64,000 nucleotides of DNA from Bacteroidota bacterium (GCA_016193485.1 JACPRZ010000063.1:128156-192155); one strand, 5' to 3'; numbered from the stretch's first letter, positions 41,628 to 44,551 are shown. Numbers and translations are program-made. Notes: a model not told the origin generated them from the letters alone.

Positions 41628-42458
41628 ATGCACAAGATATTATATGCTGAATTTCTTGCCCAGGATATTAAACGGTTCCGCATCCAAGCCCTCAAAATTG
41701 CACAAAAAAGAAAAGCCGGGCAGTTTGTCATTATCCGCGTAAGGGAAAATGGCGAACGCATTCCCCTGACCATTGCCGGAAGTGACAAAAAAGAGGGATC
41801 GGTTACTATTATTGTACAGGGTATAGGCAAAACAACAAAACAATTAAATAAACTGAAGAGTGGCGATTCCATAATGGATATTGCAGGACCTCTGGGGAAA
41901 CCTTCTGAAATTGAAAAATTCGGAACTACAGTAGTCGTTGGGGGGGGCGTAGGAACTGCGATCGCTTACCCGGTGGCTGTGGCGCTGAAAGAAAAGGGCA
42001 ATCATGTAATATCCATTGTAGGAGCCAAAACAAAAGACCTTGTCATCCTTGAAAAAGAGATGAAAGATACCAGTGATGAATTATTCGTCACAACCGATGA
42101 CGGCAGTTACGGCTTTCACGGATTTGTCACCGATAAATTGCTTCAGATTCTTAACAGCGGCAGCAAAGTTGATTTTGTTCTGGCCATCGGACCCATCCCC
42201 ATGATGAAACGGATTGCCGATGTTACAAAACCGTTTGGAATAAAAACGGTAGTAAGTTTGAATCCTATTATGGTGGATGGCACAGGAATGTGTGGCGGAT
42301 GCCGCGCAACCGTAGATGATAAAACGGTATTTGTCTGTGTTGATGGTCCTGAATTTGACGCGCACAAAGTTGATTTTGATTTGCTGACTAAAAGAAACCG
42401 GGCGTATATGAGAGAAGAAAAAGTGGCGATGGAAAAGTTTATGAAGGAGATGTTGTAA
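41628..42458 (+). CDS. sulfide/dihydroorotate-dehydrogenase-like FAD/NAD-binding subunit (NfnA/SudB/PyrK-like) with a C-terminal [2Fe-2S] motif
   Basis: 276 aa with an FNR-like fold and the C-terminal MCGGCRATV...C cluster motif. Confidence 0.75.
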   Translation: MHKILYAEFLAQDIKRFRIQALKIAQKRKAGQFVIIRVRENGERIPLTIAGSDKKEGSVTIIVQGIGKTTKQLNKLKSGDSIMDIAGPLGKPSEIEKFGTTVVVGGGVGTAIAYPVAVALKEKGNHVISIVGAKTKDLVILEKEMKDTSDELFVTTDDGSYGFHGFVTDKLLQILNSGSKVDFVLAIGPIPMMKRIADVTKPFGIKTVVSLNPIMVDGTGMCGGCRATVDDKTVFVCVDGPEFDAHKVDFDLLTKRNRAYMREEKVAMEKFMKEML

Positions 42459-42464
42459 AAACAA

Positions 42465-42542
42465 CACACCCCCCTAACCCCCCTCTTGATAGAGGGGGGA
42501 ATAGAACAAGTCCCCTCTAAAAAGAGGGGATTTAGGGGTGTG
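42465..42542. repeat. 78-bp nested-palindrome element (left copy) flanking the DUF559 gene
   Basis: cacacccccctaacccccctcTTGATAGAGgggggaatag...tcccctctaaaaagaggggatttaggggtgtg has outer inverted arms CACACCCCCTAA/TTAGGGGTGTG and two inner hairpins. Confidence 0.8.
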
Positions 42543-42592
42543 TTATTCCGAATTTATGAGTTTATCAATTATCAGGATGCACCGTTTTACCT

Positions 42593-43024
42593 ATGTCAAC
42601 GCCTAAAAGAATTTATTATAACCCTAAACTAAAAGAATTGGCACGAGAGTTTAGAAATAATCCCACACTTTCTGAAAAATTGTTTTGGCAACGATTAAAA
42701 AACAAACAAATTATGGGTTACGATTTTCACAGACAAAAACCAATAGGAAATTATATTGTGGATTTTTATTGTTTTCAACTCATGCTTGCTATTGAAATAG
42801 ATGGGCTGATTCATCAATCGGAGGATGTAAAATTCCGGGATTATATCCGTCAGGATAAGATTGAGGATTATGGACTGAAATTTTTACGGTTTTCCGATAA
42901 AGAGGTAGAAAACAATATTAACGGGGTAATAATGACAATTGAAGATTTTATTGTTGATTTTGAAATGACACACCCCCCTAACCCCCCTCTTAATAGAGGG
43001 GGAATAGTTGCAATTCCCTGCTGA
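42593..43024 (+). CDS. DUF559 (Vsr/restriction-endonuclease-like) domain protein
   Basis: KLFWQRLKNKQIMGYDFHRQKPIGNYIVDFYCFQLMLAIEIDG...LRFSDKEVENNINGVI matches the DUF559 signature. The last ~15 codons are read from the right-hand repeat. Confidence 0.75.
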   Translation: MSTPKRIYYNPKLKELAREFRNNPTLSEKLFWQRLKNKQIMGYDFHRQKPIGNYIVDFYCFQLMLAIEIDGLIHQSEDVKFRDYIRQDKIEDYGLKFLRFSDKEVENNINGVIMTIEDFIVDFEMTHPPNPPLNRGGIVAIPC

Positions 43025-43079
43025 AAAGCGGGGTAGGGAATTAAGTCCCCTCTAAAAAGAGGGGATTTAGGGATGTGTT
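42968..43079. repeat. 112-bp nested-palindrome element (right copy), a direct repeat of 42465..42542 with an extra internal hairpin
   Basis: cacaccccccctaacccccctcttaatagaggggg...aattccctgctgaaaagcggggtagggaatt...tcccctctaaaaagaggggatttagggatgtgtt. Confidence 0.8.
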
Positions 43080-43096
43080 AAAAAACATCATTATTT

Positions 43097-44551
43097 ATGC
43101 AAAAAATCTCCAACAAAGACCGGATGAAAATCCCCCGCCAGCAGATGCCCGAGCAGGAGCCGCTGGCACGTGTAGCAAATTTTCTTGAAGTAAATCTCGG
43201 GTTTGACGCGGAATTGGCTAAGACCGAAGCGATGAGGTGTTTACAATGCCCGAAACCAAAATGTATTGAAGGATGCCCGGTGCAGATAAAAATACCTGAA
43301 TTTATACTCCTTATTTCGCAGGGTGATTTTCTTGGTGCGGCAAAAAAAATAAAGGAAGACAATATGCTTCCGGCAATTTGCGGAAGGGTTTGTCCGCAGG
43401 AGGAACAGTGCGAAGTGCTGTGCGTGACAGGCAAAAAAAATCCACCGGTTTCAATCGGGCGGCTTGAACGCTTTGTTGCTGACTATGAGAGGGAAGTTGC
43501 AGGACTATCGGTACCTGAACCAAAGCCGCGGACAGGCAGGAAGGTTGCCGTTGTCGGCAGCGGACCGGCCGGATTATCCTGCGCAGGCGACCTGATACAG
43601 ATGGGTCATGCCGTGACGGTATTTGAAGCGCTGCATGAACTGGGGGGGGTATTGGTTTACGGTATCCCGGAGTTCCGCCTTCCCAAAACAATAGTAAAAG
43701 GTGAAATTGAAAACCTTTCAAAACTCGGAGTTGAGTTTGTCACTAACGCGGTAATCGGGATGACCGACACAATTGATGAATTGCTTGAAAATGAGTATGA
43801 TGCCGTATTTATTGCAACCGGTGCGGGTCTCCCCTACTTCATGAATATTCCCGGAGAAAATCTTATTGGAGTTTATTCTTCCAATGAATTTCTCACACGT
43901 GTTAATCTCATGAAAGCGTACCGCTTCCCGGAATTTGACCAGCCGATAATTGATGTGAAGGGTAAAAATGTTATCGTTGTAGGGGGGGGGAATACGGCTA
44001 TGGATGCCGTGCGCACTTCTAAGCGGCTTGGTGCAAAGAATGCTTATATAATGTACAGGCGCTCCGAAACAGAGATGCCTGCCCGCATTGAAGAGGTTCA
44101 CCATGCAAAAGAAGAAGGCATTGAATTCCGCATTCTGACTGCCCCGGTTGAATTTATTGGTGATGAAAACGGCTGGCTTAATGGAGCAAAGTGCATAAAA
44201 ATGGAATTAGGTGAACCGGATTCGAGCGGCAGGCGCAGGCCCGTGCCAATGGCCGGTTCGGAATATATTTTGGATATTGATGTGGCGATTATTGCAGTCG
44301 GTAACGGTTCTAATCCGTTAATCTCACAAACCACTCCGGATATTAATGTTAATAAACGCGGCAACATTATTGCTGACGAAAATACCTGCGCCACTTCCAA
44401 AAAAGGCGTTTATGCGGGCGGGGATATTGTATCGGGAGGGGCAACGGTTATCCTCGCCATGGGAGCCGGAAGAAAAGCGGCAAAGGCGATAGATGAATAT
44501 CTGAAATCGCTGGATGTGCCGGTGAATCAACCTGCCGGCTCAAATGCATGA
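43097..44551 (+). CDS. NADPH-dependent glutamate-synthase small-subunit-like oxidoreductase (NfnB/SudA/GltD family)
   Basis: 484 aa with two N-terminal 4Fe-4S Cys clusters (CLQCPKPKCIEGCP, CGRVCPQEEQCEVLC) and a GSGPAG FAD/NAD Rossmann motif. Confidence 0.8.
   Translation: MQKISNKDRMKIPRQQMPEQEPLARVANFLEVNLGFDAELAKTEAMRCLQCPKPKCIEGCPVQIKIPEFILLISQGDFLGAAKKIKEDNMLPAICGRVCPQEEQCEVLCVTGKKNPPVSIGRLERFVADYEREVAGLSVPEPKPRTGRKVAVVGSGPAGLSCAGDLIQMGHAVTVFEALHELGGVLVYGIPEFRLPKTIVKGEIENLSKLGVEFVTNAVIGMTDTIDELLENEYDAVFIATGAGLPYFMNIPGENLIGVYSSNEFLTRVNLMKAYRFPEFDQPIIDVKGKNVIVVGGGNTAMDAVRTSKRLGAKNAYIMYRRSETEMPARIEEVHHAKEEGIEFRILTAPVEFIGDENGWLNGAKCIKMELGEPDSSGRRRPVPMAGSEYILDIDVAIIAVGNGSNPLISQTTPDINVNKRGNIIADENTCATSKKGVYAGGDIVSGGATVILAMGAGRKAAKAIDEYLKSLDVPVNQPAGSNA

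Follow-up and report, generated by a model that had tools for sequence, protein, structure and literature searches.

What holds apart two subunit genes that ordinarily adjoin? The question is raised by a locus in a 64,000-nucleotide (nt) stretch from a Bacteroidota bacterium (GCA_016193485.1 JACPRZ010000063.1:128156-192155; this whole stretch is called the window), where an nfnA-like and an nfnB/gltD-like gene are separated by 615 bp (42464..43078) made up of a nested palindrome, a 49-nt leader, a DUF559 open reading frame (ORF) and a second nested palindrome (Table 1). Our answer, to which we give a probability of roughly 55%, is that this insert is one copy of a widespread, apparently undescribed and compact selfish cassette, a DUF559 nuclease framed by triplex-motif (TM) repeats. 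The cassette sits as an insertion in an operon spacer, its repeats obey a triplex rule, its anatomy is fixed across phyla, and it decays to ORF-less copies that are able to multiply. A preliminary description had taken the insert for a small mobile cassette with an endonuclease-fold gene, lodged in an operon; empty sites, low G+C content, recurrence in other genomes and multiplied derivatives all support that view.

The three gene identities proposed there (PyrK-like, GltD-like and DUF559) are borne out by profile matches. The nfnA product scores 408 bits against NCBIfam PRK06222 (cutoff 220, 2e-122) and also matches Pfam DHODB_Fe-S_bind; the nfnB product scores 601 bits against TIGR01316, NADPH-dependent glutamate synthase (cutoff 472, 1.5e-180), with Pfam Fer4_20 and Pyr_redox_2; and the intervening protein scores 100 bits against PF04480 (cutoff 20.6, 9e-29). 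All three match MBI2968737-39 of a Bacteroidota metagenome-assembled genome (MAG) at 100%, the nfnA product being MBI2968737.1. With both subunits above their family thresholds and the genes adjacent in relatives, the locus is assigned, from family profiles and gene adjacency, to an NfnAB/SudBA-type oxidoreductase pair. DUF559 is the sole ORF of the insert (Pfam reports only DUF559 and MTES_1575).

Because relatives carry nfnA and nfnB 17–24 nt apart, we read the 615-bp segment as an insertion that interrupts an otherwise continuous nfnAB operon in its short spacer, a few bases past the nfnA stop. The closest NfnA relatives are 74–78% identical, and in three of them (loci L168, L169 and L170) the genes lie at this distance with no repeats; comparison with orthologous loci, as the preliminary description had proposed, thus provides three empty sites and confirms that the pair is normally adjacent. 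In every relative examined the two genes either adjoin or are separated by a different insert. On the right-hand side, 18 nt lie between 43079 and the nfnB ATG, similar in length to the empty-site spacers, and the G+C content of the DUF559 ORF (32–34%) falls 10–18 points below that of the flanking genes (44–52%). The insert termini read ACACACC...GGATGTGT and form terminal inverted repeats of 32 nt that are 81–84% complementary. They are bordered by a candidate target-site duplication, TAAAAACA and TAAAAAACA, which agree except for one extra A and which, at 8–9 nt and A-rich, are weak evidence for a duplication. Truncation of nfnA by the insert was considered (276 amino acids versus 278–295 in relatives) and is not required: the carboxy-terminal tail varies within the family, and the stop lies within the candidate duplication. 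Both insert junctions were recovered in independent samples, with two independent Logan contigs reproducing the DUF559–repeat–nfnB junction; all Logan contigs break inside the left palindrome (ends at 42485, 42534 and 42540, restart at 42515), their ends overlapping by up to 26 nt.

The two directly repeated nested palindromes around the DUF559 gene are real: the window contains exactly two copies each of a 23-mer and a 28-mer drawn from them (0 expected, 100 shuffles), and single-stranded DNA folds, computed with Watson–Crick pairs only, give -29.7 kcal/mol for each element (z = -7.5 and -6.5 against dinucleotide shuffles). The left element (42464..42543, 80 bp) comprises units 1 and 2, the right element (42968..43078, 111 bp) units 3 and 4. 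On its G-rich strand a unit has a pyrimidine stem, CCCCTCT, separated by a 4-nt loop from the purine stem AGAGGGG; a second, short loop (TTA or ATTTA) leads to a third block, GGGGTGT, whose sequence is a mirror image of the purine stem in which G faces G, and either T or A faces A. Such mirror pairing is the rule for a purine-motif intrastrand triplex. The nested palindrome of the preliminary description stands, but the outer arms described there are third strands belonging to triplex-type motifs and not plain terminal inverted repeats. In unit 1 the third block ACACACCCCCC is followed by loop TAA, stem CCCCCCTCT, loop TGAT and stem AGAGGGGGG; in unit 2, stem TCCCCTCT, loop AAAA, stem AGAGGGGA and loop TTTA lead to third block GGGGTGTGT. 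All four units have the three-block form, three with full mirror scores and unit 4 with one mismatch. Across 122 loci, 428 of 894 strand readings obey the mirror rule (398 perfectly), against 70 (8 perfectly) after shuffling of the tails; as the 894 readings represent 447 hairpins with 7-nt pyrimidine stems, about 96% of hairpins are compatible, compared with about 8% of shuffled readings. In seven stem variants, changes in the stem are matched by changes in the third block; the pairs (purine stem/third block) include AGAGGGG/GGGGTGT, AAGGGGG/GGGGGAT, AAAGGGG/GGGGATT, AGGAGGG/GGGAGGT, GGAGAGG/GGTGAGG and GGAGGGG/GGGGTGG.

To our knowledge, repeats of the BoxC/PIT/TMECO type have been known in E. 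coli since the early 1990s, with no protein partner, function or mechanism of spread found; BoxC and PIT elements were reportedly described by Bergler in 1992 and by Hoyne et al. in 2000. The repeats of the window fall within this broader class of intrastrand-triplex motifs, as a variant and not as strict TMECO, because the window units do not match the TMECO consensus: that consensus is CCCTCNCCCN3-6GGGNGAGGGN3GGGNGAGGG, whereas the window has CCCCTCT-N4-AGAGGGG-N3-5-GGGGTGT, with stems of 7–9 nt and T in place of A. The repeats had been called REP/MITE-like (for repetitive extragenic palindromic sequences and miniature inverted-repeat transposable elements), a label that does not hold, as they are neither REPs nor classical MITEs. 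E. coli K-12 holds 23 TMECO copies, strongly conserved and widely distributed, without promoter or terminator activity, and the inverted pairs among them always join a TTA-loop (type A) with a CCG-loop (type B) unit (Holder et al. 2015, PMC4666352). The same study links TMECO to no mobile element or gene class and associates its loci with instability. Both window elements are inverted pairs too, with second loops TAA and ATTTA, and anammox and other doublets pair TAA(AT) loops with CG-rich loops. Searches of Rfam at gathering and permissive thresholds matched the window repeats to no described RNA family, returning only sub-threshold hairpin look-alikes among microRNA models.

A scan with a permissive pattern, at one genome per species, found at least 120 loci. 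Among the matches listed are Nitrospirota, anammox Planctomycetota (many per genome), Ignavibacteriota, Bacteroidota, Desulfobacterota, Poribacteria, Deferribacterota, Calditrichota and others, a breadth that mis-binning of MAGs may somewhat inflate; the head ACACAC, which was absent from the scan pattern, is nearly universal among them. Stretches of 36–40 nt from the window units are 97–100% identical to elements in MAGs of distant phyla, and copies per genome reach at least 7 loci in Kuenenia hertensis and at least 9 in Anammoxibacter OFTM214. Viral contigs carry the motif in 28 stretches, never beside DUF559, and the DUF559 relatives found there are distant (35–50% identical). Higher-order arrangements also occur. 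Two loci of uncultured Flavobacteriaceae, L078 (3096..4131) and L119 (3750..4421), hold tandem arrays of 4–6 composite repeats with periods of about 123–149 and about 215 nt; most repeats of the former combine one CCCCTCT-type with one CCCTCC-type unit, and those of the latter have one CCCCTCT-type unit each. In L058, L160, L161, L116 and other anammox/Brocadiales loci, doublets are nested in a further palindrome layer, TATTCAGCGT...ACGCTGAATA, and the long second loop of the type-B unit is itself a hairpin, for example TGGCGGCGTAGCTGAC.

The protein between the repeats is a predicted Vsr-fold PD-(D/E)XK nuclease. It has every residue that is invariant in the family, among them D57, E68, D70 and H74, which do not vary across 29 aligned homologues, and its AlphaFold (AF2) model, with a predicted local distance difference test (pLDDT) score of 88, suggests a restriction-endonuclease-like fold with a conserved acidic/His core. 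Foldseek places it nearest to 3HRL, a Neisseria DUF559 protein (E 7e-7, TM-score 0.84), followed by the catalytic domain of I-Bth0305I (3R3P, E 8e-5 to 1e-4, TM-score 0.69–0.78), with Vsr itself far weaker (1CW0, E 0.47). DUF559 is a very large family; at E ≤ 0.001 we counted 20,622 cluster representatives, and the literature searched gave no biochemical work on a stand-alone member. As had been noticed at the outset, the reading frame runs into the right-hand element, continuing for 18 codons into unit 3 and ending ...THPPNPPLNRGGIVAIPC before its stop; this read-through tail is modelled at pLDDT 53–60. The C-run of unit 3 is 6 long, not 4, so that the loop TAA that serves as the canonical DUF559 stop (...THP and stop) is shifted out of frame in the window.

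Searching for further DUF559 genes flanked by the repeats, another proposal of the preliminary description, revealed TM motifs within 200 nt of the gene in 13/13 DUF559 loci examined. Where both sides carry units their polarity is fixed, and the canonical DUF559 stop is the TAA inside the motif. The common anatomy runs from a hairpin with GGGGTGTGT through a leader and the ORF to ACACACCCC, TAA and a hairpin, with both third blocks facing the gene; this register and polarity are constant across phyla, even between homologues that share only some 50% identity. Gene and repeats keep the same layout in unrelated genomes, next to unrelated neighbouring genes. Carboxy-terminal tails encoded by the motif occur in 54/120 (45%) of the nearest homologue clusters against 0/120 NfnA controls, and in 42/148 representatives of 50%-identity clusters, with translations such as HTPNPSQEG, THPQPLSRGE and NPPPTPPRRG, or else ...THP with the unit-loop TAA as stop. 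Amino-terminal read-through of an upstream unit was seen in 11/76 long representatives (0/120 controls). Four homologues picked because they lack such tails (L183 from Runella, L184 from Bacteroidales, L186 from Telluribacter, and L189) all have units within 200 nt (4/4); together with L031 they place 13/14 perfect units in the roughly 20% of sequence closest to DUF559, and these five loci and the window all carry a same-polarity unit 0–80 nt upstream of the ATG. Approached from the repeats, 7/120 of the motif-found loci listed carry DUF559, six of them directly beside a pattern-matching unit and the seventh flanked by a variant hairpin type. When ORFs of at least 60 amino acids that end in one of 248 units are collected, DUF559 is the only recurrent family. 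Copies can be more elaborate: in L031 a 43-nt sequence that takes in the final 18 nt of the ORF is directly repeated, one copy lying upstream of the ATG and the other at the 3' end, and L080, L095 and L151 form tandem cassette-like arrays. We found no report linking DUF559 to these repeats, and the systematic coupling of this family to a known but unexplained repeat class appears new.

Two of these loci resemble the window in their setting. In Telluribacter (L186, 1338..1991) a DUF559 cassette splits thrA and thrB, and in Runella (L183, 1386..1923) one lies between a Cys/Met pyridoxal-phosphate (PLP) enzyme gene and a gene for 3'-phosphoadenosine-5'-phosphosulfate (PAPS) reductase, in sulfur assimilation; each is co-oriented with its flanking genes.

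Copies that have lost internal sequence but retained both ends are found in two phyla. At L095 (Kapaibacterium) an intact cassette is followed by an ORF-less copy in which both ends survive: on the 5' side 98 nt at 88% identity, and on the 3' side 89 nt at 85%, of which 44 nt are coding. At L149, in a Desulfobacterales MAG, 32 amino-terminal and 7 carboxy-terminal DUF559 codons are left between two units, and the same MAG holds further deleted copies, L096 and L097. Because the latter share their ends and differ in their flanks, a non-autonomous derivative has multiplied in the Desulfobacterales MAG. When the sequence ahead of 185 units was searched with a hidden Markov model for leftover DUF559 coding sequence, one case (L149) emerged besides the intact genes; most solo units thus lack a detectable DUF559 remnant.

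How such a cassette would move can be sketched from these features. The DUF559 protein, probably a dimer like I-Bth0305I, would recognise and cut the palindromic TM pair or its folded form, and the break would let the cassette, or its ORF-less derivatives, copy into other TM sites by a homing-like gene conversion in which the conserved units provide the homology. Insertion at new sites such as nfnA–nfnB would be rarer, possibly by way of a staggered cut, as the possible 8-bp duplication at the insert would allow. TM-only pairs, those of BoxC in E. coli among them, would stand to the cassette as REPINs (REP doublets) stand to RAYTs (REP-associated tyrosine transposases), as its non-autonomous relatives. 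More tentatively, and at somewhat less than even odds, DUF559 nucleases may be the missing protein partner of BoxC/PIT/triplex-motif repeats throughout Bacteria, recognising and cutting the folded or palindromic motif and so driving their own spread together with the repeats' amplification, decay and locus instability.

E. coli provides a view of the same association within one species. Its K-12 DUF559 gene, ycjD (b1289), ends in a degenerate unit (...RRSPSP and stop), followed downstream by a duplicate (about 45 nt) of its own 3' end and then by TMECO #9, at 167 nt according to the published supplement. The 121-nt stretch 3' of ycjD that contains TMECO #9 has a median of 15 matching places per E. 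coli genome. In a census of 60 evenly spaced genomes among 5,426 complete ones, the 37 genomes that keep the ycjD-linked locus have 11–27 (median 18) and the 23 that lack it 1–13 (median 3), a contrast that is suggestive, being confounded by phylogeny and resting on few independent evolutionary events. It agrees with the published 29 TMECOs in strain 55989 versus 1 in IHE3034. YcjD resembles the window protein as a small single-domain DUF559 gene product, encoded between and co-oriented with sapF and fabI, whose gene ends in a degenerate TM at a polymorphic locus; it differs in sequence (24–30% identity; the window protein reaches 60 bits against PRK09767, cutoff 218), in having no TM upstream of the gene and in repeats of a GC-rich proteobacterial variant. 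Of complete E. coli genomes, about 62% carry ycjD and BoxC units in the sapF–fabI interval (L181; K-12 1351407..1351760 and the downstream 370 nt). In the genome examined among the others (L182) the interval starts with genes for a TetR regulator and a resistance-nodulation-division (RND) pump, fitting eefRABCD. The site that holds ycjD in phylogroups A, B1 and C holds the eefRABCD operon in other lineages (PMC12817139), and ycjD-less E. coli were accordingly rejected as simple empty sites.

Several of these results weigh against the insert being a copy of a selfish cassette. The empty nfnA–nfnB alleles contain no TM, which rules out simple homing to a TM already in place as the origin of this insertion. 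With the nearest DUF559 homologue at only 63% identity and the window protein itself found, in exact form, in a single context, there is no sign of recent multi-copy DUF559 activity in this genome. None of 25 solo doublets at other loci showed a target-site duplication. The coupling of DUF559 to the repeats, as traced here in sequence, is positional. Finally, DUF559 is absent from the surroundings of 113/120 listed motif-found loci, and E. coli lineages that lack ycjD retain 1–13 units; the repeats thus persist, and perhaps spread, without a local DUF559 or any at all.

These last counts also speak for an account that we think unlikely, though more credible than the others below: that the TM repeats are independent, structure-driven, BoxC-like elements, which collect between genes and provoke local rearrangement, with DUF559 a passenger or a host enzyme (a repair or restriction-like nuclease, for instance) that is frequently captured or kept beside them and does not act on them. 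TM loci are unusually rearranged in E. coli, and no protein was invoked to explain this (Holder et al., PMC4666352); PADLOC gives the DUF559 protein a weak match to a methyl-directed restriction enzyme model (2e-7); and the same nfnA–nfnB gap holds a PDDEXK_3 gene in relatives, so it may simply tolerate insertions. A passenger, however, sits uneasily with a register and polarity fixed across phyla, with one unit before the ATG and a stop codon that falls within the TAA loop of the unit downstream, or with DUF559 alone recurring among the ORFs that end in a unit. The multiplied ORF-less copies, moreover, keep DUF559 remnants at both ends, as expected of a gene-bearing parent.

Improbable is a site-specific recombinase acting on the palindromes as on integron attC sites, with the direct repeats arising from Campbell-type integration of a circle into an existing palindrome. 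The palindrome–ORF–palindrome layout with its whole element directly repeated, the 43-nt repeat of L031 and the tandem arrays of L080, L095 and L151 would all suit it. Yet the empty sites in relatives offer no palindrome to integrate into, the elements are strongly conserved across phyla, unlike attC, and no called gene in the fetched DUF559 loci has a tyrosine recombinase Pfam match, although neither loci nor window were searched for one systematically. Integron attC cores are RYYYAAC and GTTRRRY; the arms CCCTAAC and ATTTAGGGG misfit both and the window contains no array, and an integron gene cassette was rejected as an identity for the insert. An ancestral arrangement with DUF559 lost in relatives, or an assembly artefact joining contigs at the repeat, is very improbable, for although no single short-read Logan contig crosses the left palindrome and the closest NfnA relatives are distant lineages, the overlapping contig ends, the junctions in independent samples, the nfnA–nfnB arrangement of relatives, the low G+C content of the ORF and the cassettes between unrelated genes (thrA–thrB, sulfur assimilation) all oppose it.

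A polar effect on nfnB, raised in the preliminary description, is not indicated, as the insert has no terminator-like site on the plus strand, PIT elements are reported to lack terminator activity and DUF559 is mostly co-oriented with its neighbours (18/21 scored across loci, a trend only). The cassette has the orientation of the operon and nfnB is intact; DUF559 would probably be expressed by read-through from the nfnA promoter, with nfnB probably still co-transcribed.

Small nuclease genes have landed repeatedly in the nfnA–nfnB gap. Loci L164–L166 and L190, from the lineage nearest to the window, have a different one there, PDDEXK_3, with inverted repeats of its own: about 35 nt, GCCAC(A/T)AAA..ACACAAAAAC, plus small hairpins (L164 2211..2833; L165 and L166 1321..2030; L190 2527..2593). 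Strains of this lineage with an identical NfnA protein differ in the gap, and in L164 a helicase gene follows where nfnB would be. The window itself has a second nuclease cassette, a PDDEXK_3 ('GxxExxY') gene of this same family (PF13366, 5e-37) between fabF and rnc, in the same orientation and flanked by inverted CTCGCAAAG(T/A)CGCAAAG repeats. Apart from the four units around DUF559, the window contains one variant unit, CCCTCCCCTTCGGGGAGGGATGGGGTGGGG, and no other; it lies in frame within a gene for a TolC-like outer-membrane efflux protein, encoding SPSPSGRDGVG right after the predicted signal peptide, and looks like a tolerated in-frame repeat insertion. The neighbouring ORF combines an RND permease (ACR_tran) with periplasmic adaptor domains (BSH_RND, Beta-barrel_RND_2, YknX_C) and, from this domain content, looks like a transporter–adaptor fusion.

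Table 1. Features of the window, in order of position
Feature	Position	Strand	Remarks
fabF	15960..17216		
Second nuclease cassette, flanks	17217..17732		
PDDEXK_3 gene	17263..17643		126 amino acids
rnc	17733..18470		
nfnA-like gene, PyrK-like FAD/NAD + 2Fe-2S subunit	41628..42458	+	276 amino acids; stop TAA 42456..42458
Candidate target-site duplication, left copy TAAAAACA	42456..42463		read from sequence; spans nfnA stop codon
Triplex-motif unit 1	42464..42499	- (G-rich strand)	mirror score 7/7
Triplex-motif unit 2	42511..42543	+	mirror score 7/7
Leader, unit 2 to DUF559 start codon	42544..42592	+	49 nt
DUF559 (Vsr-like PD-(D/E)XK) ORF, intact	42593..43024	+	143 amino acids; Pfam PF04480
Triplex-motif unit 3	42968..43002	-	overlaps DUF559 3' end; mirror score 7/7
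Extra degenerate hairpin in right element	~43003..43044		diverged duplicate of hairpin 1; family D2, 78% identity to 42481..42545
Triplex-motif unit 4	43046..43078	+	third block GGGATGTGT, one mismatch; mirror score 6/7
Candidate target-site duplication, right copy TAAAAAACA	43079..43087		then short spacer before nfnB
nfnB/gltD-like gene, intact	43097..44551	+	484 amino acids
ORF, looks like RND transporter–adaptor fusion	45114..49346		1410 amino acids
TolC-like outer-membrane efflux ORF	49359..50684		
Variant triplex-motif unit	49431..49464		in frame within the TolC-like ORF

A coupling of DUF559 to TM repeats makes both the function of the family and the spread of BoxC directly testable, E. 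coli included, where ycjD with about 20 BoxC copies would be a ready experimental system. It would account for thousands of annotated DUF559 proteins with tails such as HTPNPSQEG or PLPxGEG, for assembly breaks at DUF559 genes, and for small nuclease genes inside tight operons (nfnAB, thrAB, fabF–rnc).

Set beside known systems, the cassette shares features with several. With MITEs and insertion sequences (IS) it has in common terminal inverted repeats, ORF-less derivatives that multiply and a possible 8-bp duplication at the insert; it differs in that the insert encodes no DDE or other known transposase, solo copies have no duplications, and the cassette termini are conserved across phyla, unusually so for an IS family. 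I-Bth0305I (PDB 3R3P; PMC3239194), an EDxHD homodimeric homing endonuclease that cuts a 14-bp pseudopalindrome, has the Vsr-like catalytic fold predicted here, and its mode of cutting would suit a palindromic TM pair. It is, however, multidomain and encoded in a group I intron in phage recA, whereas a single domain of about 125 amino acids makes up the window protein, whose gene is intergenic and has no intron; residence as a homing gene finds no match, with no Rfam intron in the locus and no candidate target in the empty nfnA–nfnB alleles. The repeats themselves are closest to BoxC/PIT/TMECO, sharing the three-block architecture, the short second loop that is often TTA and the frequent inverted pairs and, judging from copies in other genomes, probably also a mostly intergenic, multi-copy, highly conserved and widespread distribution tied to locus instability. 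They depart from the published consensus in their CCCCTCT/AGAGGGG stems and GGGGTGT third block (T opposite A); in taxonomic range, with window-type units in Bacteroidota, Ignavibacteriota, Planctomycetota, Nitrospirota and others where the TMECO survey covered proteobacteria; and in framing DUF559, where published work has no linked gene or mobile element. As a partnership of gene and repeat, the cassette is analogous to the REP/REPIN–RAYT systems (REPtrons), in which a short conserved head likewise accompanies a hairpin, inverted doublets fold into long hairpins, repeats flank a single nuclease gene, solo copies are many and solos show no target duplication. Here the nuclease is of the PD-(D/E)XK Vsr fold and not an HUH Y1 (IS200/IS605-like) transposase, which sets it apart from RAYTs; the head is a triplex-compatible mirror block and not GTAG/CGTC, and the ORF overlaps the repeat. 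If DUF559 nucleases are indeed the partner of these repeats throughout Bacteria, the two would represent a second, independent REP–RAYT-like partnership, one that joins a PD-(D/E)XK nuclease to a non-B-DNA motif.

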